A DNA stretch of 64,000 nucleotides, from the NCBI GenBank assembly GCA_965200955.1, contig OZ241742.1, positions 170,320 to 234,319 of the forward strand, written 5' to 3'. Source of the stretch: Rhodothermales bacterium. Its GTDB lineage: Bacteria > Bacteroidota > Rhodothermia > Rhodothermales > Bin80. Numbering within the stretch: the stretch's first letter is position 1; every line of letters begins with the position of its first letter. This document shows, piece by piece, positions 2,120 to 16,873 of the stretch. The notes under the pieces are model-generated. The model was not told the DNA's origin and ran no database searches. It saw only the letters and a program-made list of their open reading frames with translations. The position numbers were made by a program, and so were the translations under genes.

Positions 2120-3552
2120 CTATGGACTACGTCACTTCCTACATCGGAAATCAAACCAAAGAACATAAAGAAACTGATCACAGACATTCTCCAAGAAATT
2201 ATATGAAAGGCACAAACAAAGGATAGAAACGCATGATTGAAGTGCACTGGTGTAGAATCTTTGTCCAACACATTTTGACCGCCCTATCAAGGATTTTACA
2301 GTAATGATAAAAATACATAATTCCAAAATTACTAATTCTCTTTTACTCAGGCAGGTGAAAATTATTCCCTCAATTCTAAAACAGATGACGAGAATCTTTT
2401 CTTGAACCTATCCACATTTGATCCTTACCGATTATCTCATCAACACCTTAGTCGCTAAATCATCTACGTTCTCATTCGGATCTCGCAAGTAGAATGATGA
2501 TCTCAATCTCGGAATATTTCTAATTTTCAGATATAACGATGATGATCACCATCCTTGAGATTCTGATAAATCTGTGGGGCTTCCGTTTTTTAAGGATTTA
2601 TACGTGATGCGGTTTTCAACTTTTCGTTATGCTATTGAATTAAGATTGTCTTTCACAAACTTCTTGTGCCCACCGTGATCCATCTAACAGGAAGGTTTTA
2701 CCATTATTTCACAAGATTCTTCAAAGATTTACTCTTACTTTTTTACCCATTGCAAAATCACATTGTACTAAAAACTGGAACCAGTTGATAGTTTGCATGG
2801 AGGCGATCTATAATCTCTATGGCTTTTTTATCCATTTCGTTTGAGTTTCCCATTACAAATACATCCCAAGTTAGCACCAATATTGAACTAAATGTATCTT
2901 TGAGATCTTCAAAACATTTTTCTGAAAGCGATGTGTCAAGGTCTTCGGAGTCAATGGTCAAGTATTGACCGCATTCGGATTTTCTTACATCAAGTCTGAT
3001 TGGTTCATTCCGTACGAGTTAATGCTTCTCCTTATAAGGAATTTCATGAACCGGAATTTGTGGTCAATCGGTCAAGTTATTGATGCCAAATGATTTAGTG
3101 GATCCCATTAAATGCCACAGGTTTCAAGATTCAGAGAGAATGTGTAGTATAGGTACTATTTCCTTGTTGATTGCTCAAGAAGTGTCCACTTGAAGAAATG
3201 CTCTTTCCCAAGTACACAGCACACATTCAACCATATCAAAATTTATTATGCGTAGAAAGGTCAAGGACTAAGAGTGGATCAGTTGCATGATGTATCATAG
3301 TTCACCAAGACGGTTGGCGAACAATCTGAAAGTATTCACCTTGATTCGTAATATGGTATCCATCAACTTGGGACAATCTTATTTTCCTCGCTTGGATCAA
3401 TCGAAGGTTTTATTCTCATAGAGTTGGGGTGGTCGTATTTTGTAGAAGCGGAAGATGAATCCTTGGATCGGTGCACAATATCTTTGAGCCCAGTGAGCAC
3501 AAATATATCTTCAAAGTTTTTAACTTTATCTCAATCCTAATTTTCAACAATC

Positions 3553-5259
3553 ATGCTGACTTCTCTGAAACGCCAGTTTGTGCTCATAAGTGTACTACTG
3601 CTTTTGGGTTGCTCCAATGAGCAATCTGCTACGCTTGCAATCATCAATGGTAAGATTGTGACGATGAATCCATCACAGCCCGAAGCAGAAGCATTAGCCG
3701 TCAGTGATAATACGATTCTTGCAGTTGGTTCTATGCAAGAGATTGAAACCTATATTGGTACCCAAACAAAAATCATTGATTTGGATGGAAAACTGGCGAT
3801 CCCTGGTTTAATTGAAGGGCATGGACATTTCCTTTCCATTGGAGAAGCGAAAATGATCCTGGATCTTTCACAGACCCAAAGTTGGGAGTCCATTGTTGCG
3901 ATGGTTGACTCCGCAGTGACCGTATCAGATCCGGGGGAGTGGATCACTGGGCGTGGCTGGCATCAGGAGAAATGGGATTCCATCCCACCCAATACTGTTG
4001 AGGGCGTTCCCACGCACCATTCACTCAGCGCGGTATCTCCAGATAATCCAGTGTTTCTTCGTCATGCCAGTGGCCATGCCGCATTTGCAAATCAATCTGC
4101 CATGAATGCCGCTGGAATTAGCCCCGAAACTCCAAACCCTCCCGGTGGAGAACTCATCCGTGATCTTCGTGGAGAACTGACTGGATTGCTAAGAGAAACT
4201 GCAGAGAGCTATGTGGAAGCTGCATTGGAAAAATCACGCGAGAGCATGAGTGAGGAGGAATTAGATCAAGAGCGTCGTATGATGGCTCATCTGGCAGCTC
4301 AGGAGGCCCTGTCACATGGAATCACTTCTTTCCATGATGCAGGTGTAGGATTTTCAACCGTAGACTTCTATAAACAACTTGCCGTTGAGGGCAATCTCCC
4401 CGTTCGGTTATATGTGATGGTTCGTGAAAATAGCACTTCCCTATCTGAAAAATTGGCATCCTATCGATTCATAGGTTTTGGAGATCATCACCTTACCGTT
4501 CGTAGCATCAAACGTTCTATTGATGGTGCCTTGGGTTCGCATGGTGCATGGCTTCTTGAACCATATACAGACATGCCCTCATCCAGAGGATTAGAAACCG
4601 TATCGGTAGAGGAAATCAAAGCCACCGCAGAAATTGCTAAATCGCTTGATTTTCAATTCAACATACATGCCATCGGAGATCAAGCCAACCGTGCTGTTCT
4701 TGATATCTACGAATCCTTTTATAGCCAAACCGATCAGGATTTACGTTGGAGGATTGAGCACGCACAGCATCTCCACCCCGATGATCTTCCAAGATTCGGC
4801 AGTCTGGGCGTTATCGCGTCCATACAGGGAATCCATGCCACTAGTGATGCACCGTGGGTCTACCGTCGATTAGGTCAGGAACGAGCCCAGTCAGGTGCCT
4901 ACAGGTGGCAAACACTTTGGCAAACGGGTGCATTGGTCAACAACGGCACAGATGCACCAGTGGAATCCATTGACCCGATTGCTAATTTTCATGCGACGGT
5001 CACACGAATGTTGGCCGACAGTTCCCTTTTTTATCCTGAAGAACGTTTGTCACGACTGCAGGCACTGCAGTCCTATACGATCAATAATGCCTATGCAGCC
5101 TTTGAGGAAGACATCAAAGGTTCACTTGAAACTGGAAAACTGGCAGATATTACCGTCCTCTCCAAAGATATTTTTACCATTGATGAAGACGAAATTACCA
5201 GTACAGAGATCCTCTATACCATCGTCGGAGGCAATGTCCTGTATCAGAAAGAACACTAA
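3553..5259 (+). CDS. Amidohydrolase-family metallohydrolase (Amidohydro_3/YtcJ-like), predicted lipoprotein
   Basis: 568-aa ORF. N-terminal lipobox VLLLLGCS. Metal-binding GLIEGHGHF motif, later NIHAIGD and NGTDAPVE motifs typical of TIM-barrel amidohydrolases. Confidence 0.85.
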   Translation: MLTSLKRQFVLISVLLLLGCSNEQSATLAIINGKIVTMNPSQPEAEALAVSDNTILAVGSMQEIETYIGTQTKIIDLDGKLAIPGLIEGHGHFLSIGEAKMILDLSQTQSWESIVAMVDSAVTVSDPGEWITGRGWHQEKWDSIPPNTVEGVPTHHSLSAVSPDNPVFLRHASGHAAFANQSAMNAAGISPETPNPPGGELIRDLRGELTGLLRETAESYVEAALEKSRESMSEEELDQERRMMAHLAAQEALSHGITSFHDAGVGFSTVDFYKQLAVEGNLPVRLYVMVRENSTSLSEKLASYRFIGFGDHHLTVRSIKRSIDGALGSHGAWLLEPYTDMPSSRGLETVSVEEIKATAEIAKSLDFQFNIHAIGDQANRAVLDIYESFYSQTDQDLRWRIEHAQHLHPDDLPRFGSLGVIASIQGIHATSDAPWVYRRLGQERAQSGAYRWQTLWQTGALVNNGTDAPVESIDPIANFHATVTRMLADSSLFYPEERLSRLQALQSYTINNAYAAFEEDIKGSLETGKLADITVLSKDIFTIDEDEITSTEILYTIVGGNVLYQKEH

Positions 5260-5594
5260 ATCCTTATGATTCTGGATGCGATGGTCAGGTATCCCAAATA
5301 GACAGCTACCATGAGAGATCCCATCATTTCGCGGCCCGCTTCATCCTCAAAATAATGGAGTCCCTGGCTGATCACAATCCACACATAATAGAAGCTGAAC
5401 ACAAATGCTACGCTTGAAAGGATCGCAATGATATACCACGGCAACCTGTAAAATAGTGATGCAAAGCCCAAGATGGAAGTCAGTCCATAGACCACAACCC
5501 AAAGAAAAGCATCTGGATCATTGAACTGCCAATATGCAAATACCAAGAACAGGAATGCACTCAAAAAAGTGATGCCTTTCAGTAGGATATTCAT
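5256..5594 (-). CDS. Small integral membrane protein (about 4 TM helices)
   Basis: 112-aa ORF made almost entirely of hydrophobic stretches (ITFLSAFLFLVFAYW, FLWVVVYGLTSILGFASLF, WYIIAILSSVAFVFSFYYVWIVI, MMGSLMVAVYLGYLTIA). Its stop overlaps the convergent amidohydrolase stop. Confidence 0.6.
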   Translation of the reverse strand: MNILLKGITFLSAFLFLVFAYWQFNDPDAFLWVVVYGLTSILGFASLFYRLPWYIIAILSSVAFVFSFYYVWIVISQGLHYFEDEAGREMMGSLMVAVYLGYLTIASRIIRI

Positions 5595-5609
5595 GAGACT
5601 TGGCTCCGA

Positions 5610-7691
5610 TTACCAGTTCATCCGAAGTCCAGCGAGTAAGGATCGCCCTGCTGCTGGATAAAGGAAAAGCGTGTCTGACCCGCCGGGATCAAAAAATCCC
5701 GTTGTACTGAAGAGATTATTCATCAAGTTAAGCGTCTCAAGTTCTACCGTTACCCATCCCAACGAATAGGTCAACTTGAAGTCTACTGAAGAAAAATTAT
5801 CCAATCTTTCAGTATTTGCATCATCAAGCCAGATTCTGCGTGTACTCCGAACCGTTGTCATCGCACGAACTCGGTCAAGAAGTGGTACACTGATCGCAGC
5901 TGATACATAATCCTGCGGAATCGTTCTGATGAACTTTCCTTTGTGCTCACCTGCACGGTAGGTCACATGCTGAAGCGTATAATTGAATCTTAAGGACGCA
6001 AGACCTATCCGTTCAAGTTGTACTCCCAATTCAACTCCACGGTGGCGACTGCTGGCAATATTTTCGTATTGGAAGGTTTCAAATTGAAAATCAAGCTCAT
6101 CCTCCATATCCATGTGATAGAGACTGAGCGTAAGGTCACCCGTAAGTTTTTCGGGAATGAGTACAGCTCGGTGATACACTCCAGTTTCAATACTGATGCC
6201 CCGCTGAGGTTTTAGATTTGAATTTGAAATCGATATCCCAGGCATTGCAATTGGGATTAGCCTTTGTCCAAAGAGTTGATCCATGGTTGCCGTCTTAAAC
6301 GATTGAGCAACATTCGCATACCAATTTCCTATATGGTCTGCACTTGAAATGTACCGCACATTCAACCCGAATTTAGGGCTGAGTGCAGTGTGCACTGGAT
6401 CCAATTTGGAACCCCCTTCGGGAGTATAGGAATCTGCAATCCGGTCATAACGAAGGCCTGCCGAGAGTTTAAGCTGAGACAATAGCTCTACGTCATACTG
6501 CAAAAATGCAGCGTACGATTGTCGGGAACCTGATCCACGAGTAGAAAGATCACCTATCGAACCATCAAAACCGTTAAATACCTCGGCAGGACCTGTCACC
6601 ATATCATACCATGCTACATCTAATTCCCCATTCTGAAGATCTCCTCCCACAGTAAGATGATCATTCGCTATAAGATCTTGAGAAACCCATTGCACGCTGA
6701 CAAATGAGCGGGAAGCATCAAACTGTCTCCATTTCACATCTGCAAATTCAGCACTCAGCGGCAGTGTGCGTGCCCCTTTCAATCCACGCTCATTCAGGAT
6801 CACCGATGCGAGTAATTCAGAACTTTGACTCAGGTTGAATATCCCTCGCAATGCCAGTCTTCGTGTATCTTCATCATTGTTGTCGTATTGAAAAAAAGGA
6901 GACTCCTGTACTCGGTCCTGTGCAATCTGCTGACTGGTGAGAGGCCCGGGTACATCATACTTTCGGGAATGTAAAGATGCTGAGAACCTCAGATTGAGTC
7001 GCTCAGAGTTCAGTAGATCAATTTCCATACCCAAGCCAGCGAGTGTTCGGTTGGCATGTTCACGGTAGCCATCAGTTGACTCATAGTTTCCATAGGATGA
7101 AATTCTTCTACTTCCCAACGAAAAATAGGAAGATCCACTTGCTTTCAATGTTCCATGGGAACCTCCAGCAATAGACAATTGATAGCTTGAAGGAGCGTCG
7201 GATGCAGTGATGATGTTGATGACTCCGCCAATGGCAGCATCTCCATAGAGCGACGATGCCCCACCACGAAGTACCTCAACCGACTCAATAGCGGCGAGTG
7301 GAATTTGATCCCAGTTGACCAGTCCAGTTTCAAGTGCATTCACTGGCTGATTGTCCACCATAAGTAATACATATTCAGCCTCTCCACCGCCATAAAATCC
7401 GCGGATGATTGGCTGCACATCATATCCAATACCATCTAATTGAAGCAGGGTAAAACCTGGCACTTGCCGAAGGATTCCTCCGAGCGTTTGAACTCCGGCC
7501 AATTGCTGGATATCATTTCGTTTTAGAACACTGATTGCACCCGTAGATTGTGATCGTATAGATTTATATCGATCGGCGGTCACGATGACATCGTCCATTT
7601 CAACGAGTCTTAGCGTATCTACATCCTGAGCGGATGTAGATGTAGACACTGAGTAAGTCAACAAGAATAGCAACAACACTCGTAATAACAT
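5610..7691 (-). CDS. TonB-dependent outer-membrane receptor
   Basis: Signal peptide MLLRVLLLFLLTYSVSTSTSAQ, plug motifs (DDVIVTADRYKS, VEVLRGGASSLYGDAAIGGVINI), long beta-barrel ending ...GLRMNW. The ORF track begins at 7766, but the Met at 7691 directly precedes the signal peptide. Confidence 0.85.
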   Translation of the reverse strand: MLLRVLLLFLLTYSVSTSTSAQDVDTLRLVEMDDVIVTADRYKSIRSQSTGAISVLKRNDIQQLAGVQTLGGILRQVPGFTLLQLDGIGYDVQPIIRGFYGGGEAEYVLLMVDNQPVNALETGLVNWDQIPLAAIESVEVLRGGASSLYGDAAIGGVINIITASDAPSSYQLSIAGGSHGTLKASGSSYFSLGSRRISSYGNYESTDGYREHANRTLAGLGMEIDLLNSERLNLRFSASLHSRKYDVPGPLTSQQIAQDRVQESPFFQYDNNDEDTRRLALRGIFNLSQSSELLASVILNERGLKGARTLPLSAEFADVKWRQFDASRSFVSVQWVSQDLIANDHLTVGGDLQNGELDVAWYDMVTGPAEVFNGFDGSIGDLSTRGSGSRQSYAAFLQYDVELLSQLKLSAGLRYDRIADSYTPEGGSKLDPVHTALSPKFGLNVRYISSADHIGNWYANVAQSFKTATMDQLFGQRLIPIAMPGISISNSNLKPQRGISIETGVYHRAVLIPEKLTGDLTLSLYHMDMEDELDFQFETFQYENIASSRHRGVELGVQLERIGLASLRFNYTLQHVTYRAGEHKGKFIRTIPQDYVSAAISVPLLDRVRAMTTVRSTRRIWLDDANTERLDNFSSVDFKLTYSLGWVTVELETLNLMNNLFSTTGFFDPGGSDTLFLYPAAGRSLLAGLRMNW

Positions 7692-8175
7692 CTTTTTAAT
7701 ATAATGGATAGGTATTGGTTGAATGATGAAAAAGTAGTTGACACTAAACATCAAAACTTCCTCCACATCTATGAATAAAGGACTCAGCTACCTTCAAGCC
7801 ATTAAAGCGAACATCCTTGAAGGTTTTGAAAAATTTCAATCGTAGACTTGTACTGTTTAACACCGCCAATTATCCAGACCCTGAATGAACCATGACAGTG
7901 GTACTTAATCGTTTTTTCTGATATTCTATTAAGGATCAATAGAGACAGATGCCTCCATCATAGCTGGATGAATGAGGAAATGGTCCTAAATTAATCCATG
8001 GATTACTTGAGATCTTCACTGACTAACTTGATTGATAACTCTTAAGAGAATCATTTTTTAAGAATATTTGCACATCTCATTTATGATGAATGTACGTCTA
8101 CAAAACGATTTTGGTAAGTAAAGCGGGTGTAAAAAGGTACCATATGACTTCCGCAGTATAGCAAATAATCGATTC

Positions 8176-9780
8176 CTACAACATTGAAAAATGTTCAGCA
8201 ATCTGATCCAATTTTTCAATGACTTCTGGATGAATTTCCTGTTTCTCCATCTCAGCCGCGATTTGATAAAAGTCTCGTTCATCGATATTCAAAAATGCAG
8301 AATTGAAGAATTGAGATAGTAGGCTTTTTGCTTTGATTTGCTGATAATAATTAGATGTATCAAGCATGTTATCGTATACTACTGGGGGTAACTGATCACG
8401 AATGAATAATGTTACTTTCTGGGCAGACTGTACTCCATGGTTCTTTTCTACAAATCGAGTGATTGCATCAGGATGGATCAGATAACTCTCTATCTCATAC
8501 CTTTCCCAGTACATGCGTATCATCCCCTTAGGGAGTTTAGGCATCGTACTGCGATCTTTTCCATTGCTATCACACAACTCCACTCCTCTAAAATCAGGCA
8601 CAAGTCCTTTAAGAGCAACAAAATGTCGAGTAGCGGACCATTCATTCCGAGCAGTTTCCCATGTAAATGGACACTCAAGAAATGGTAATAGAGGGTGCTC
8701 CAAAATACGTGCCCATTCCTTCAAAATGAGAATATCTGTGGATCCTTCAATATATAATATTTTTGCTTCTGTCTGTGCATTACAGATATCTACATTTTCG
8801 AGGTATAATGTATCTGATACTTTTCGTTTATCCGTGATCGTATACATTTCACTTCCCAATACACGGAGATCATCTCTTTGAACCGTGTTGATGAGCCGTT
8901 CAGAATGCGTAGCAATAATAAGTTGAGTTTGATTTTGACGAACACGCTTTAATAAATGCTGATAAATCTTATTCTGCAATAGAACATGCAGATGTGCATC
9001 TGGCTCGTCAATGAGTACAACTGAATTCTGTTCGTAAAGTAAAGTTGCATAAACCATTAAAATTTGTAAAAAGCCAGCTGCCGCACTACTCAATTCATAA
9101 AAAGTATCACTCATTGAATGACGATAACGTACATATACCTCAGCAGCTCCACTGGGAGGGTCCAACTCAAATCCAAAAAATGACCGAACGATAGATCTCA
9201 ACTCATTCCATTTATCCGAATCCTGGCTGATATGTAATAGCATATTCCGAAGGATGCTACCTCCTTGTCGGCGTGCCAACCGGGCTGTAATCACTATTCT
9301 ATCATAAAGTGGCTCCCTTAAATCCAACCCCGTAAATGGAGGAATATATGTGGAATGGATCGGTTGTTTGACGTATTTGTCTATATCACTTTCTTTCACC
9401 TCTTGGACTGGACGAATATCGGCTAACTCCCGCTCATGATAGATTATTTCAAAGCCGATTTTCCATGACTTTGTGTGTAACCATATGGATGAAGGATAAC
9501 GAACATTTTTACTGTGCCACAGATGATCAAAATCTATCAATGGCACCGATTGAAACTCTAAGACATTCAAACGAATACTCGGATAATTGCCATCTTCTTC
9601 CCGAGCGAGATCTGGAAAATTTTTTGACCAATGAGATGCAAATTCTATCCAACATGCGATAGCTTGAAGAAGTGTTGTTTTACCAGAGTTATTCTGACCA
9701 ACAATGACAACGTGATCAGGAAGATCAAACTCCAAATGCTCAAACTTCTTGAAGTGGTTGATAATCACTTTTTTGATCAT
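8176..9780 (-). CDS. ABC-type ATPase fused to a Toprim/DUF4435-like C-terminal domain (OLD-family or fused AriA-AriB/PARIS-like candidate)
   Basis: Walker A VGQNNSGKTTLLQAI, signature-like ELSSAAAGFLQIL, Walker B VVLIDEPDAHLH, H-loop IIATHSERL. The C-terminal ~200 aa start with KILYIEGSTDILILKEW (E-G-x-x-D as in Toprim-like DUF4435/RloB domains) and carry a later acidic patch VELCDSNGKD. The likely start is the Met at 9780 (MIKKVIINHFKKFEHLEF), not 9825. Confidence 0.6.
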   Translation of the reverse strand: MIKKVIINHFKKFEHLEFDLPDHVVIVGQNNSGKTTLLQAIACWIEFASHWSKNFPDLAREEDGNYPSIRLNVLEFQSVPLIDFDHLWHSKNVRYPSSIWLHTKSWKIGFEIIYHERELADIRPVQEVKESDIDKYVKQPIHSTYIPPFTGLDLREPLYDRIVITARLARRQGGSILRNMLLHISQDSDKWNELRSIVRSFFGFELDPPSGAAEVYVRYRHSMSDTFYELSSAAAGFLQILMVYATLLYEQNSVVLIDEPDAHLHVLLQNKIYQHLLKRVRQNQTQLIIATHSERLINTVQRDDLRVLGSEMYTITDKRKVSDTLYLENVDICNAQTEAKILYIEGSTDILILKEWARILEHPLLPFLECPFTWETARNEWSATRHFVALKGLVPDFRGVELCDSNGKDRSTMPKLPKGMIRMYWERYEIESYLIHPDAITRFVEKNHGVQSAQKVTLFIRDQLPPVVYDNMLDTSNYYQQIKAKSLLSQFFNSAFLNIDERDFYQIAAEMEKQEIHPEVIEKLDQIAEHFSML

Positions 9781-10074
9781 CCTGTAACGATAGTCATTTA
9801 TTATTGATGTACTACAGCATCGCACCTCAACTGTGCGATTAATTCATGCAGGCAAATGTTGTAGAGACAACAGAATATTTACCCTGAAACCGTAACTGCT
9901 CATGCCAGCCTCTATATACCAGCTATCTGCAGTTGTTCTACATGAATCAACGCTGTCATTTGAAAATTGTTCAATACAATAACCATACACGTTTGAAGAA
10001 AATGAGCACTTCATAATGAGGTTTGATTGATAGTATCCTTCTTATTCCGCATAGATCATTAGGGATGCTCCCCC

Positions 10075-11469
10075 TTAATTGCCATAGCGAGTATTATTAT
10101 TAACAAGTAAACTTTTATCTCCTGATCCCATGTAACGTTCAAGTAATGGGTGAGGGCCTTGTTCATCCATTGTATTTTCGTAGCATCCATGCACCAACCG
10201 AAATCTCTGCGTAGAAAATTGACCATTAGAATCTATTCTGAAATGGTGAACTCGGGCCATAAAATCATTAAATGTCATGCATGCAGCTTGCATATTCAAG
10301 GAGATCACAGCTGGCTGTTGCTCTCCCACACTGGTCAAGTATCCATTCTCAAGTTGTTGATCATAATACTCAGGATCTAATCGCTTCCAGTTTTCGGCGG
10401 TAACTTGAGACATAGTATATGCTCCACGAGATAATAAGCTTCCACCTTCAGGATAAGTATAGTGTGTAACTGCATCAGCGACTGTAATGCACCCATTGCC
10501 ATCAGCCTCTAAATGCACTCCTGTATCAAAATAAGGAATCAGGTATGCACTCGCTATACAATCTAAATGATAACGACCAAATGCCGTGTCCACACATCCA
10601 AAAATCACATCGCAGTCAATTAAGGCATCTTTAACATCTGGGCAGTCGGTCAATCCACAATAGGTATCAACCTTTGTCCCCGTGCCAATATTTTTAATAG
10701 CCCGTGCAATTGAAGAAACCTTAGATCGTTGACTTTTGGCATCATCTACGGTGCTGTTGATAATTCGATTTAAATTTTTCTCCTCTATGAGATCGTCATC
10801 AACGATCACTAATTCGCCGACACAATTACGAACGAGGAGTTCAATCAGGATACTACCAGTGCCTGAACAACCAATCACCCCCACCCGTAGTGACTGCAAT
10901 AGATTCAATGTCCCCTGACCAAAAATCTGGGAGAGATGATCTCTGTACTCCGCCTGTTGATGATCTTGGTTTAGTTTCCAGATGCAAATATTTTCTCCAA
11001 CCACAGATACAGCTGGCATTTGATTAAATGTTCCTTGCACATCTACTGTACGTGCTGTAATACGGCCATCTGGTAAAGCAATTGCTGACCCATTCAAGCG
11101 TCCATCATCAAACCAATTACATATTGATGAAAATAACCTTTGATCATTATGATCGTCAACCTCTGAAAACTCAGTACAACCACTTGGATGGGAGTGAATG
11201 ATGATAATGGACTGACCATTTTGATCTATCTCGCTGATCCTTTGAGGAGTGAAGAAGTCTTCCACTGGCCACGAGATGAAATCTTGTTTTCTGTCTGAGA
11301 GAGATCCTGATGGGTAAATGATGTCAGAGACGATCAGACGTTGGTATAGCTTGCCTGAGCCCTGATTGCATAACAAAATTGCTACCGCTTCCAGATTATC
11401 CCCTGGAAAAAGATGAGATATGATAGCGGTGTACTTGCTATCATTCATACTTAGTATAGCCCTCTTCAT
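10075..11469 (-). CDS. JAB/JAMM metallopeptidase fused to ThiF/E1-like adenylyltransferase
   Basis: N-terminal domain has an upstream Glu (NLEAVAIL) and HSHPSGCTEFSEVD, which is exactly H-x-H-x7-S-x2-D. C-terminal domain has the Rossmann motif VGVIGCSGTGSILIELLVRNCVGELVIVDDDLIEEKNLNRI typical of E1/ThiF/MoeB enzymes. The start overlaps the upstream stop as ATGA. Confidence 0.8.
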   Translation of the reverse strand: MKRAILSMNDSKYTAIISHLFPGDNLEAVAILLCNQGSGKLYQRLIVSDIIYPSGSLSDRKQDFISWPVEDFFTPQRISEIDQNGQSIIIIHSHPSGCTEFSEVDDHNDQRLFSSICNWFDDGRLNGSAIALPDGRITARTVDVQGTFNQMPAVSVVGENICIWKLNQDHQQAEYRDHLSQIFGQGTLNLLQSLRVGVIGCSGTGSILIELLVRNCVGELVIVDDDLIEEKNLNRIINSTVDDAKSQRSKVSSIARAIKNIGTGTKVDTYCGLTDCPDVKDALIDCDVIFGCVDTAFGRYHLDCIASAYLIPYFDTGVHLEADGNGCITVADAVTHYTYPEGGSLLSRGAYTMSQVTAENWKRLDPEYYDQQLENGYLTSVGEQQPAVISLNMQAACMTFNDFMARVHHFRIDSNGQFSTQRFRLVHGCYENTMDEQGPHPLLERYMGSGDKSLLVNNNTRYGN

Positions 11470-12572
11470 TTGAGGACTTCACGGTGGAGCATATTCACAA
11501 CAAATTCAATATGCCGTGCTATAGAATCATGTCCAGATTTCCAGTCATAATGGCGAGACCAACGTTGCCACTCCTTGCCGAAATGAGTTTCTGAACTTAA
11601 ACTTGATATGGGTGAGCCATCCATTTTTTCAAGTGGATGCCAGAAGTAAAACATGTCTAGTGCTGATCCTGGGTAACCTATCGGAACGAGAATCATCAAA
11701 GTAGATTTTCTATAAATGTAACCTTTGGGAAGCGGAAATTCCTTAATGATCAGACCATACTTTGCGTTACCCTCCATCTTTTTTGACCACCTTGATGGAT
11801 AATGTTGATCTAAGTATTGGATATCTTCAGGTAAGAATCCAAATGTGTATGGTCTGCCGTACTGTGCCTGTTTAGGAACCGTTTCAAATCGTTCTATACC
11901 ACAGTGAGATAGATTGATTTGATCATCTGTTGCAACCCTTTCCCGTTTACCACCATGCCATTTCTTATTTAGAGACCATTCATCGGTACGCTTTTCCGCC
12001 AATGCCAGAATTTCAGCACCCGAAAGCGTATCAGAGTCTACGACATGTTGAGTGGTGTCAATACGGATACAGTATGAATAGCCCCGCGGAGGTTTACGAT
12101 TGTGCTTTCCGCATTCTTCATGATCGATCACATCTTCCAAGCTGGGAGGGATGACAAAGTAGGAGTCCTGTTCCTGGATGATGATTGTCATATCATCTGA
12201 GATCTCAACATCTACCTCACCATGAGACTCTATAAACAAACGCCCTTCAGGAAAAGTGGAGTCAAATTTCTTGAGTTCTTTTCCTGTAATTTTGACCGAA
12301 TCAATCACTATGTTACGAGCACTATTGAATACTGGCCTCACCTCATTGCATTGAGATGATACTTCCTCATTGATATCCTTTTTTGTCTTTAACACCTCCC
12401 CCCCATGAACACAGAGATATTCGCCAATCATCAAGGGAATCTCCAAATCGTTGTATCTGACTAAAAAGAGTTGCATATTCCCACAATCTGCAAGTTCATA
12501 GAGATCTGTAATCTCAATTAAGCCACTGGGGAGTGAGTGATCTTTCCCATCAATTTGGATCAGAGTTTGCAT
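11466..12572 (-). CDS. Multi-ubiquitin-like (tandem beta-grasp) protein fused to a cysteine-less E2/UBC-like domain (Prok-E2_E-like)
   Basis: 368 aa. Three beta-grasp-like modules at approximately res 1-65, 78-145 and 165-239. The third reads YCIRIDTTQHVVDSDTLSGAEILALA...INLSHCGIERFETVPKQAQYG. The C-terminal ~130 aa (LPKGYIYRKSTLMILVPIGYPGSALDMFYFWHP) resemble an E2 fold. Assignment is from memory of the Aravind-group families, not from an HMM. Confidence 0.6.
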   Translation of the reverse strand: MQTLIQIDGKDHSLPSGLIEITDLYELADCGNMQLFLVRYNDLEIPLMIGEYLCVHGGEVLKTKKDINEEVSSQCNEVRPVFNSARNIVIDSVKITGKELKKFDSTFPEGRLFIESHGEVDVEISDDMTIIIQEQDSYFVIPPSLEDVIDHEECGKHNRKPPRGYSYCIRIDTTQHVVDSDTLSGAEILALAEKRTDEWSLNKKWHGGKRERVATDDQINLSHCGIERFETVPKQAQYGRPYTFGFLPEDIQYLDQHYPSRWSKKMEGNAKYGLIIKEFPLPKGYIYRKSTLMILVPIGYPGSALDMFYFWHPLEKMDGSPISSLSSETHFGKEWQRWSRHYDWKSGHDSIARHIEFVVNMLHREVLK

Positions 12573-12722
12573 ATCCTTATTCGGATCGTACGCGGAGGGT
12601 TGTCAAATATACGTAACGAACTCAATTGTTTTGTCTCAACTCATTCCGGCTATGATGCACCAATATAGTGAGTCAAGTTTTGAACATATTTTCATGAATA
12701 CCATCAACGCTAAATGTGATCC

Positions 12723-13676
12723 CTAATGATGAATGTTCAAGGTGTTGACGGCTTCAACAACCTGATCGTGGACGATACCATTGGTTGCAATGATTCCTAT
12801 GTTATGTTCTAACCGTTTACCACGACTGAAATCAAGTTGATTTCCTTTGCAGTCGGTCACCTTTCCACCCGCTTCTGAGAGTAACAGTGCTCCTGCTGCA
12901 TGATCCCAGATTCGTTCTACATAGCCATTACCAAGGGGGAGGCGCATATAGATGTCTGCATCACCGCTCGCTACTACTGCGTACTTTGCCTGACTGTCTA
13001 ATTGAACGCGGTCGGATGTGATCCCTAAATCTCGTGCAACCTTTTGGATGTCTCCAAGAGCGGTATGTCCAGATTCTACACTTTGACAAATTCTTGCCTT
13101 AGAAACATCGGAAATTTCAGTTACTTGAATACGATGTTGTCCGTGAGTTGCCCCAAGTCCTTTGGCTACCAAAAAAACATCATCACTCATATTGGGACAA
13201 GCAAGTCCTCCAACCACTACCTTCCCACCTTCTATCAATGCCAAGGCCACTGCATACTGCCCTCCTCGTAAAAAGCCTTTGGTCCCATCAATAGGATCCA
13301 ATGTCCAAAAACGATCAGAATAATGCTCAGCATTACCATAGTCAATCCATTTCAGGGCCGCCTCTAACAGGGTTCCAGGGCGAACTGCATCAAGATGCAT
13401 TCCTAATGTATTGCGAAGATCTGTCTGTTCTTCAGCACGCAACAGAGTGCTGTCTTCTTCGGCAATAATGGGATCATCAGGAAAGGCTTCGCGAAGTGTT
13501 CGACATACCAGTGCCTGACTTCCAAAATCTGCAATGGTGACGGGGCTCTTGTCTCCTTTAATCATTGCCTGTCGATCTTGCACAGAATGACATAACCGAG
13601 CTGCCTCGTGAAGAGCTTGCTTCACGGCATCCAATTCTTTTTCGTACATATTACTACTCATTCTCAATTGATACAA
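12723..13676 (-). CDS. 3'(2'),5'-bisphosphate nucleotidase / inositol monophosphatase family
   Basis: Motifs IIAEEDS, WTLDPIDGTKGFL and WDHAAGALL. An alternative start at the Met at 13649 would remove the 23-nt overlap with the upstream gene. Confidence 0.85.
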   Translation of the reverse strand: MYQLRMSSNMYEKELDAVKQALHEAARLCHSVQDRQAMIKGDKSPVTIADFGSQALVCRTLREAFPDDPIIAEEDSTLLRAEEQTDLRNTLGMHLDAVRPGTLLEAALKWIDYGNAEHYSDRFWTLDPIDGTKGFLRGGQYAVALALIEGGKVVVGGLACPNMSDDVFLVAKGLGATHGQHRIQVTEISDVSKARICQSVESGHTALGDIQKVARDLGITSDRVQLDSQAKYAVVASGDADIYMRLPLGNGYVERIWDHAAGALLLSEAGGKVTDCKGNQLDFSRGKRLEHNIGIIATNGIVHDQVVEAVNTLNIHH

Positions 13677-14124
13677 TCATGGTTTCAAATGATGGAATCT
13701 GATCTAAAAAATGGTAGCTTTGTAGAGACTGATCCACCTGACAACAGTAGTGTTGCATACCATTAGTAACCACGAGATATGGAACTTTCAATCCTAAATT
13801 ATAATACCCTACTTGATTGAAAACGCCCTGTCCTAATTGAACGGATGATCTTTTACACTCTACCACCAATATTGGTACAACTTGACGATTATAGACAACA
13901 ATGTCAGCCCTATACTGGCGTTCACGAATTGGAATGCTAACCTCAATATCAATGAGTCCACGCGGGACATTTAAATGGCTCATCATGTATTGTACAAAAT
14001 GCTGACGTACCCATTCTTCGGGCGTTAGAGTAACAAAACGTTTCCGTATAGGATCCAGAATCACAACGCGTCCATTGTGGTTACGGAGTTCGTAGTCATA
14101 AGCTGGCAGGTTCAACTGCTCCAT
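13654..14124 (-). CDS. Small HsdR-N-terminal-like (PD-(D/E)XK) domain protein
   Basis: 156 aa. TPEEWVRQHFVQYM..., RADIVVYNRQ..PILVVECKR (D...E-x-K core), then VVTNG. This is the pattern of the ~150-aa HsdR_N-domain proteins common in Bacteroidota. Confidence 0.7.
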   Translation of the reverse strand: MEQLNLPAYDYELRNHNGRVVILDPIRKRFVTLTPEEWVRQHFVQYMMSHLNVPRGLIDIEVSIPIRERQYRADIVVYNRQVVPILVVECKRSSVQLGQGVFNQVGYYNLGLKVPYLVVTNGMQHYCCQVDQSLQSYHFLDQIPSFETMIVSIENE

Positions 14125-14177: not shown

Positions 14178-14251
<74 letters not shown>

Positions 14252-14797
14252 CAGTTAGCATGTCAGTTTCTATATTTTCCAGATCCCGTCTGGTCTCCCC
14301 TCTAATGATTACTGTCTTCAAAGGACCCATTATACTCACCCATCCTTATACTGTTAATATAACTCTACTGTACAACCTTGTAACGAGCTCAGAATTCAAA
14401 TCAATTACCCGAAACCATCATTTTTCTTGAATTCCACGATTCTATGGATGCATTTAGACGGTTGAAACCTCATCAATTCCTTTATCTACTGGTCATCAAC
14501 CTTCAACAAGGTTCTACTCAGAGTCCAATAAAAACGTGACAAAAATGACAATTTCCCGAGGTGAATGTCTGTAAAAATCAATTTGATGATTTCGTATTTT
14601 AGAATAGTGTGGTATTTTGTTGATTCCCCTAAAAAGCGTATTTTATCAATAGTGATGCTTTCATAGATCTCTCAGGATAACATCAGTCATGTAGTTATCT
14701 CCAAGATTTACAACAGATGATCCAAATCCATTGATCAATCATCCCGGTTGGAATGAATCGCATACGACTTTTTTGAACTTTCATTAACTACATTTAA

Positions 14798-15748: not shown

Positions 15749-16873
15749 ATGTTTCGCAACAAAAAATCCAAATTTGAGACGCCCACAGGCGATCGAGGCA
15801 GAACGCCGTATTTTCATGGACGATCTAAAATCATGCATAAATTCGATCGCATCCTGACCTCGGCGGTCGCTACACGCGAGGGGACAATTCAACTCATCCA
15901 GGGTGCACCTGGTGCGGGGAAGACAGCACTGGTTGATCAGATGGAAAAGCTGGCTAAGAGTCGAGGCTGGAAATCCGTAGAGATTGACCCACAGGCACTT
16001 TGGGATGTTAAGGCACTGCGAGAATTCTTCCCAGATAAGAATATATTTCGTAAAATTACTGCTAAGTTTACGGATGAATCAAGTTCAATCTCCGTTGGCA
16101 TAGATATTGAATGGTCTACACAAAACATTCGTAAAATACTGCGTTCGGGGAGTCGCCGCCCACTTCTACTCATCCTGGACGAGGCACAAATGCTTGGTTC
16201 ATCAGGCAAGCCCGTAGGGGCACAGGCGATGGTTGCATCCAGCGTGTTAAAAGCAATTCATAATGGGAAGATGCGTGCTCCCATTATGCTGATTGCTGCG
16301 GGCCTGAGAACAACTCTAACATCTTTACAGGCGTTGGATGTATCGCGATTTGGGGAGAGGAACAAGGCGAGTCTGGGAGAGCTGAGTGAAGAGTCAGCCC
16401 GAGCAGTGATTCAAGACTGGATCGTCAAAGGTGGATCAGCCAAGGGCGATCCTACCGAATGGATAGATGCACTCTACAAGGAAACAGATAGATGGCCTCG
16501 GCATGTCCATTCATATGCAAGGATCGCTTCAATCTATCTGGAAAAACATAGCGGTATGATGACCCGTGAGGGGCTGGAGAAGGTGATAGAAAAGGGACGA
16601 CGTAGGCGCATAGGGTACTATGAGCAACGCGTAGAGGGCTTCTTTGTTGATGAGATTAGACATGTGGCACGAATCTTATCTGACCTTCCTGCAGGCAAAC
16701 CATTTGACCGACTTAACATGATTAACAGGCTATCCGAGATCTATGGCGAAGAGGCATCCCAAGAACTTTTTGATCGGTTACTTGAGAAAGGCATTGTTGA
16801 ATCCCATCAATTGGAAGGATACCATATACCAATACCCTCACTACACACATGGATTGTTGAGTCGATCGTCTAG
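15749..16873 (+). CDS. AAA ATPase (AAA_16/AAA_22-like, ORC/STAND-type N-terminus)
   Basis: PYFHGRSKIMHKFDRIL (the F-x-GR-x-x-x lead-in common in AAA_16 proteins), Walker A QGAPGAGKTALV, Walker B LLLILDEAQML. 374 aa. A decayed paralog lies at 1517-2119. Confidence 0.75.
   Translation: MFRNKKSKFETPTGDRGRTPYFHGRSKIMHKFDRILTSAVATREGTIQLIQGAPGAGKTALVDQMEKLAKSRGWKSVEIDPQALWDVKALREFFPDKNIFRKITAKFTDESSSISVGIDIEWSTQNIRKILRSGSRRPLLLILDEAQMLGSSGKPVGAQAMVASSVLKAIHNGKMRAPIMLIAAGLRTTLTSLQALDVSRFGERNKASLGELSEESARAVIQDWIVKGGSAKGDPTEWIDALYKETDRWPRHVHSYARIASIYLEKHSGMMTREGLEKVIEKGRRRRIGYYEQRVEGFFVDEIRHVARILSDLPAGKPFDRLNMINRLSEIYGEEASQELFDRLLEKGIVESHQLEGYHIPIPSLHTWIVESIV

Follow-up and report, generated by a model that had tools for sequence, protein, structure and literature searches.

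A probable Bub conjugation operon without bubE and linked to an OLD-like ATPase gene in a Rhodothermales bacterium

The Rhodothermales bacterium of GenBank assembly GCA_965200955.1 carries, within the 64,000-nucleotide stretch of contig OZ241742.1 analysed here (positions 170,320 to 234,319; hereafter the window), a gene whose product of 368 amino acids (aa) joins ubiquitin-like (Ubl) domains to an E2-like domain without any cysteine, with a glycine exactly at the junction of the two parts. The question raised by this locus is whether such a domain can still take part in protein conjugation, and what the glycine is for. In this study, the locus was assigned, with a probability of roughly 85%, to the Bub conjugation operons (formerly '6E'), in which case a BubAB pre-protein would be cut at Gly239 by a JAMM peptidase and its Ubl part transferred through oxyesters. 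This assignment draws on the domain order, the homology, the conservation of catalytic residues, the flexible junction, the natural gene fission and the purifying selection that were observed here. The cysteine-free E2 domain and the junction glycine are already explained in the literature and are nothing new by themselves. The locus is a variant of the known system, being BubE-less and linked to a gene for an OLD-like ATPase, and as such it is of modest interest and a useful lead on Bub function.

The cysteine-free E2 domain of BubAB

The gene in question, bubAB, lies at 11466..12572 on the minus strand. Pfam searches of its product placed Multi_ubiq (PF14452) at residues 169-233 (E=1e-10) and Prok-E2_E (PF14462) at residues 247-364 (E=3.4e-25), with Gly239 between the two domains. 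The AlphaFold2 (AF2) model of the whole protein, with a mean predicted local distance difference test (pLDDT) score of 88.5, consists of three beta-grasp units and a UBC-like domain, and residues 238-243 form its sole segment with a pLDDT below 50. Foldseek searches with this model gave, among the matches, the Citrobacter multi-ubiquitin (Ubl3) protein 9d5a, BubA(155-229) of 9ea8_B (template modelling (TM) score 0.79) and BubB of 9eae_C (TM 0.89, root-mean-square deviation 1.4 Å, 35% identity). The 368-aa protein is BubAB, with three ubiquitin-like domains and a Prok-E2_E domain. Its E2 (BubB) domain, recognized by phmmer and Foldseek matches to Citrobacter BubB, comprises residues 240-368 (11469..11855, minus strand); the interval 11466-11855 corresponds exactly to these residues and the stop codon, the R240 codon being 11853-11855.

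Cysteine occurs in BubAB only at positions 30, 54, 75, 154, 168 and 224 (LSHC224GIE), and the statement of an earlier sequence-only reading of this DNA, that C224 is the last cysteine and that residues 240-368 hold none, was correct. At a cysteine content of 1-1.6%, 129 residues without cysteine would arise by chance with a probability of about 0.12-0.27, which is not statistically remarkable alone. The cysteine-free stretch is meaningful because a canonical E2 requires a catalytic cysteine, and not because of the statistics. Two sets of homologues were examined: set A held 68 full-length BubAB homologues, in which residues were counted by alignment column, and set B held 142 sequences, including 50%-identity cluster representatives from a library of 1.8 billion proteins. 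No E2 column of set A had cysteine in more than 9 sequences, and 32 of the 68 had none at all; the most cysteine-rich column of set B reached 16 sequences. Hence no cysteine is conserved in either set. The absence is a property of the family, and the possibility raised beforehand, that a conserved catalytic cysteine had simply been mutated in this copy, did not hold. For lack of the catalytic cysteine the domain does not belong among the canonical E2 (UBC) thioester enzymes.

What the family keeps instead was seen by comparison with Citrobacter BubB, residue equivalences being obtained by counting positions in HMMER alignments. A phmmer search against 9eav_D/9eae_C gave E=1e-18 with the LDMFY and QRWSRH segments aligned, and a profile search gave 1e-28. 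Asp306 (11655-11657), the putative catalytic Ser339 (11556-11558) and His341 (11550-11552), all on the minus strand, correspond to D299, S333 and H335 of the Citrobacter protein. Both Ser339 and His341 were found in 67/68 sequences of set A, where the whole WQRWS-R-H-Y block is essentially invariant, and the counts in set B were 141/142 for Ser339, 140/142 for His341 and 140/142 for Asp306. In Citrobacter BubB, S333 is invariant, takes the place in the structure that the catalytic cysteine has in an E2, and is flanked by H335 and D299; with an S333A/H335A mutant BubA was no longer conjugated, either in vitro or in cells, the route being an oxyester one (PMC11601596). Because cysteine is absent family-wide, and because the near-invariant serine, histidine and aspartate align with residues required in Citrobacter, this domain most likely works as an oxyester E2. 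The UEV-like (ubiquitin E2 variant) adaptor proposed in the sequence-only reading is disfavoured, since the D...WQRWS-R-H motif is kept throughout the family and the catalytic Ser333 is the counterpart of Ser339. The absence of cysteine would then be the normal chemistry of this family and not a sign of inactivation.

The junction glycine and the BubCD partner

Gly239 (codon 11856..11858, minus strand) directly precedes R240-PYTFGFL, as had been noted, and is predicted to be both the JAB cleavage site and the C-terminus of the mature Ubl. The prediction draws on conservation, on the nature of the linker, on split genes and on cleavage of a homologue. The glycine was invariant in set A (68/68), and it was present in 66/66 fused representatives with a locatable anchor. 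In the broader fused family, where the residue was counted by its offset from the GIERF strand, the glycine stood at offset +12, and the tripeptide that it closes varied (TEG, TDG, QQG, NNG and others). Among the 68 homologues, G239 lies in a conserved ERFETV..QAQQG motif, and the sequence right after it varies in length and composition.

Natural gene fission at this glycine appears to be the strongest comparative evidence for the junction. Among the best 120 database proteins, 46 were of 260 aa or less, and 43 of these, ~241 aa long, consisted of polyUbl alone, with a C-terminus that reads ...AQQG followed by 0-2 residues, rarely more; the next gene at their loci encodes a 129-aa Prok-E2_E protein. 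In a comparison of 80 related genomic loci (designated L0xx, most of them from metagenome-assembled genomes (MAGs)), the table of open reading frames (ORFs) showed bubA and bubB as separate, slightly overlapping genes in 51/80 loci (for example L005 6001-7108, and most of L028-L086). The tblastn match to BubAB at the split loci mostly ended at query residue 239/240, with post-glycine tails of 0-9 residues. The clade therefore holds both fused and split bubA and bubB. According to the Bub paper, every Type I operon encodes BubA and BubB as a fusion (PMC11601596); stand-alone E2s had been noted earlier by Iyer et al. (PMC1779556).

The presumed protease is encoded by the adjoining gene, bubCD (10075..11469, minus strand), which shares its first 4 nt (ATGA) with the end of bubAB. 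Its 464-aa product joins a JAB/JAMM peptidase (residues ~1-165) to an E1 adenylation domain (Pfam Prok-JAB and ThiF) and matches Citrobacter BubCD 9ea4_A with E=2.4e-72. The JAMM residues E27, H92, H94 and D105 correspond to E28, H91, H93 and D104 of the Citrobacter protein, and the E1 residues R235 and Y377 to R227 and Y370. All of these window residues, together with S102, are conserved; among BubCD sequences Y377 was present in 59/59, and no column of the crossover loop (residues 340-392) was a cysteine column. In Citrobacter, Y370 of the crossover loop stands in place of a cysteine, and the Y370F mutant loses conjugation; moreover, BubCD cuts BubAB right after the equivalent glycine, G229, as determined by Edman sequencing, and requires the JAMM residues E28 and D104 to do so (PMC11601596). 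PADLOC had no model for BubAB; its E1-E2 models gave only weak hits, which fell on the ThiF core of BubCD, and none on BubAB. The suggestion of the sequence-only reading that the JAB domain of the partner cuts after Gly239, freeing a C-terminal glycine for the E1, is thus well supported for the window protein by way of its homologue, the invariant glycine, the linker and the split genes; the idea of self-processing was right but had already been published.

Taken together with the Citrobacter experiments, from which cleavage, the oxyester route and conjugation are transferred to the window proteins, the following course is proposed. BubAB would be translated as a pre-protein, coupled to BubCD through the 4-nt overlap, and the JAMM domain of BubCD would cut it after Gly239, releasing a Ubl of three beta-grasp domains that ends in ...AQYG and a free 129-aa E2 (BubB). 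The E1 domain would adenylate Gly239, and the Ubl would be passed to Tyr377 of the crossover loop and then, with the help of His341 and Asp306, to Ser339 of BubB, both as oxyester intermediates, before its final transfer to target lysines. Speculatively, deconjugation in this operon without BubE might either be absent or be performed by the JAMM domain.

Absence of bubE, rival explanations and the OLD-like ATPase

All Bub operons are said to possess bubE, which encodes a Ser-His deconjugating peptidase of the DUF6527/PF20137 family (PMC11601596). In related loci, a 120-aa ORF with a CPRxxC...CxCHYW signature (DUF6527, E ~1e-14) follows bubCD, and bubE is found at this position in 74/80 of them. 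The corresponding place in the window is a 294-bp gap (9781..10074, minus strand) that contains neither bubE nor a remnant of it. A six-frame search of the complete 4.19-Mb genome with PF20137 gave nothing above the cut-off, the best hit (E=0.24) lying elsewhere, and neither tblastn with 62 BubE relatives nor three-frame translation revealed a remnant in the gap of the window or of its closest relative. The four BubE-less gaps align poorly, and a conserved element was not seen in them. In the precomputed Pfam table, PF20137 was already labelled 'BubE'.

The closest relatives of the window locus (71-79% identity; L003/L004/L008, L088 and L090) all lack bubE. In this BubE-less clade the ratio of nonsynonymous to synonymous substitution rates (dN/dS) was 0.13-0.16 at dS ~1 for all three genes, so the BubE-less form seems to be maintained and not decaying. 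The loci L041, L060 and L022 lost bubE independently; the rest of the operon is kept in L041 and L060, and in L022 the ATPase is absent too. The absence of BubE implies that regulation or recycling must differ in these operons. The window copy and its relatives thereby contradict two statements of the Bub paper, namely that bubE is universal and that the BubA-BubB fusion is universal in Type I.

Several explanations compete with the assignment to an active Bub operon, and each has some evidence in its favour. If the E2-like domain were a catalytically dead module of the UEV or RWD type that only binds Ubl or substrates, the lack of cysteine in residues 240-368 and of any conserved cysteine across the family would be accounted for; Iyer et al. 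had indeed already seen such cysteine-less E2-like domains in 2006 and named them inactive RWD-like E2 folds (PMC1779556), and the sequence-only reading had come to a like conclusion. UEV and RWD domains, however, have no nucleophile at the active-site position, whereas Ser339-x-His341 and Asp306 lie here at the catalytic position of BubB, near-invariant and aligned with S333, H335 and D299. S333 sits where an E2 has its catalytic cysteine, and conjugation is lost, in cells as well as in vitro, when it is replaced together with H335 (PMC11601596). An invariant polar triad would moreover be needless for a pure adaptor, and a dead domain is for these reasons quite improbable. It is harder still to believe that BubAB stays uncleaved and works as one polypeptide, with the junction glycine a mere linker residue. 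That the fusion is kept in 68 homologues, and that the cleavage data come from a homologue, would speak for it; but the glycine is invariant whereas the linker behind it varies in length and sequence, split genes stop at this glycine plus 0-9 residues, E1 adenylation requires a free C-terminal carboxylate, and the Citrobacter homologue is cut precisely at that point (PMC11601596).

Since DUF6527 is missing from the genome, the gap holds no remnant and the published definition gives every Bub operon a bubE (PMC11601596), the cassette could be viewed as a decaying remnant in which BubE was deleted and conjugation no longer works. Such decay is very unlikely, as every ORF is intact with all catalytic residues present, the BubE-less layout is common to four lineages at 71-79% identity with dS ~1 and dN/dS of 0.13-0.16, and L041 and L060 kept the remaining operon after independent loss of bubE. 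An active Bub operon is accordingly the preferred reading. The Type I Bub (6E.1) features found in the window are the Ubl-E2 fusion, the JAB and ThiF partner, the junction glycine, the Ser/His/Asp site of the E2 and the crossover tyrosine without cysteine, and the feature missing is bubE in the operon. Some points weigh against this reading. BubE is absent though stated to be universal. The biochemistry comes from Citrobacter and Escherichia coli homologues, and the window E2 is only ~35-40% identical to Citrobacter BubB. Bub operons have no known biological role and are not known to protect against phage (PMC11601596). The Ubl tail reads ...AQYG, with Tyr238 (11859-11861), in the window and two close relatives, and glutamine stands at this position in 65/68; Tyr238 may or may not affect recognition by the JAB or E1 domain. 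A connection of Tyr238 with the loss of BubE was considered and dropped, because P0003 lacks bubE and yet keeps QQG.

The gene downstream of the gap (8176..9780, minus strand) encodes a 534-aa protein, an OLD-like ABC ATPase whose C-terminal part is a putative Toprim-like domain, recognized by AAA_15/AAA_21, PADLOC and Foldseek. The point from which homologues align indicates that its true start is the ATG at 9780 and not the GTG farther upstream at 9825. The Pfam matches were AAA_15/AAA_21/SMC_N, and the best PADLOC matches were NsnB, AriA, PtuA, AriAB and GajA. The ABC head contains the invariant residues G33-K34, D258-E259 and H292, so that Walker A, Walker B and the H-loop are all represented. 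The AF2 model (pLDDT 86) aligned over its full length with the Thermus OLD nuclease 6p74 and Gabija GajA 8sm3_A in Foldseek. In the C-terminal part E345, D349, D404, E429 and E431 are invariant and a weak AriAB match was obtained (E=3.9e-4); Pfam returned no credible family for this half, and no Toprim or DUF4435 match.

This ATPase gene lies downstream of bubCD/bubE in 58/80 loci from many phyla (within L009-L074), in 29 of the 30 loci examined it begins 4-23 nt before bubE ends, and its identity co-varies with that of BubCD (r=0.89, n=50). Comparison of the loci thus indicates that in this Bub clade the OLD-like ATPase gene is conserved and operon-coupled, standing third or fourth in the operon, and the relatives point to a conserved, translationally coupled partner. 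Supplementary tables aside, the ATPase is mentioned in neither Bub preprint, and PMC10557695 mentions neither 6E nor DUF6527. It is tentatively proposed that in this clade, which extends over many phyla and comes largely from sponge-associated MAGs, the Bub machinery is functionally coupled to the OLD-like ATPase-nuclease, which would be its effector or its target, and that the Rhodothermales-like sub-clade to which the window belongs runs without the BubE deconjugase. If true, this gene would give Bub operons their first candidate for an output module, and BubE would be shown to be dispensable. As Bub operons have no known function or target, a conserved partner of nuclease type offers a concrete experimental handle.

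Locus variants and comparison with known systems

The window cassette is flanked on one side by a gene for a TonB-dependent receptor and on the other by one for a CysQ-like phosphatase. A promoter/terminator scan of 7700-12800 performed no better than on shuffled sequences. In the closest relatives, other genes end 5-58 bp before bubAB, at the place of the CysQ-like gene of the window: a 626-629-aa protein with a weak PIN_8 match in L003 (4107-5996) and L004 (4116-5996), and a TOTE-type pair (TBP-TOTE; DUF7017/S1CSD-TOTE-2) in L090 (1996-4943). A CapH/CapP pair, reported for 31% of Bub operons (PMC11601596), lies upstream in several relatives and is not found at the window copy. A tRNA-Pro(CGG) gene is located at 14178-14252 (plus strand), at a distance of roughly 1.6 kb from the cassette; an HSDR_N_2 protein (13654-14124) is encoded next to it, and an AAA_16-type ATPase (15749-16873) farther on.

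Thirteen further loci instead carry an upstream 427-aa AAA_15 ATPase (NsnB/PDC-M55A-like) and a 180-aa protein, often with a DNA methylase on one side and a ResIII helicase on the other. In an alternative layout among more distant relatives (L028, L069, L075, L078, L079, L080 and L083, ~2300-12700), the co-oriented order is DNA methylase (866 aa), AAA_15 ATPase (427 aa, NsnB/PDC-M55A-like), 180-aa protein, bubA, bubB, bubCD, bubE and ResIII helicase (954 aa), and Bub may there form part of a larger system of restriction-like character. More distant canonical Type I Bub operons have bubAB-bubCD-bubE without any ATPase (L091 7521-7856; L092 3157-3507; L093 4394-4726). The related loci span at least ten phylum-level groups, their hosts including Rhodothermales, Latescibacterota, Nitrospirales, Thermodesulfobacteriota, Dadabacteria, Binatia, Chloroflexota, Longimicrobiales, Bdellovibrionales, and Alpha- and Gammaproteobacteria. 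Several of the MAGs bear sponge-associated candidate names (Poriferihabitans, Spongiihabitans and Porisulfidus), and this habitat, as read from taxon names, suggests horizontal spread within one environment.

The closest known system is the Type I Bub operon of Citrobacter sp. RHBSTW-00271 (Ye, Gong, Chambers and Corbett, 2024, PMC11601596; PDB 9ea4, 9ea8, 9eae and 9eav). Both loci have the Ubl3-E2 and JAB-E1 fusions, the junction glycine, the Ser/His/Asp site and the crossover tyrosine, and no catalytic cysteine. The window differs in having no bubE, the operon of its clade includes the OLD-like ATPase, its Ubl tail is ...QYG instead of the usual QQG, and, unlike some Bub operons, no CapH/CapP or CapW regulator adjoins it. 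The same gene set had been described as operon type '6e' by Iyer, Burroughs and Aravind (2006, PMC1779556), with polyUbl, an E2/RWD-like domain, a JAB-E1 protein and a metal-binding protein Y; the last, judged by its description, is probably BubE and has no counterpart in the window. In that paper the cysteine-less E2-like domain was either fused to polyUbl or stand-alone, both of which hold for the window relatives, and it was taken to be an inactive ubiquitin-binding domain, whereas later biochemistry found it active.

Like the window, the Bil (BilABCD) and CBASS Cap2/Cap3 systems use bacterial E1, E2 and JAB machinery in which the JAB peptidase exposes the C-terminus of the Ubl or substrate, and they occur in defence-island contexts; unlike it, they work through cysteine thioesters, and their proteins are separate or fused differently. 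The eukaryotic polyubiquitin and ubiquitin-fusion precursors (UBB/UBC and UBA52/RPS27A) share with BubAB a Ubl fusion that is cut after a C-terminal glycine before activation. In BubAB, however, the three beta-grasp domains would remain one modifier released by a single cut, the E2 of the same pathway serves as fusion partner, and the protease and the E1 are parts of one protein. UEV proteins (Mms2/Uev1a and TSG101) and RWD domains likewise have a UBC-like fold without a catalytic cysteine, but UEVs have no replacement nucleophile, whereas the family of the window protein has an invariant Ser-x-His and an aspartate at the active site.

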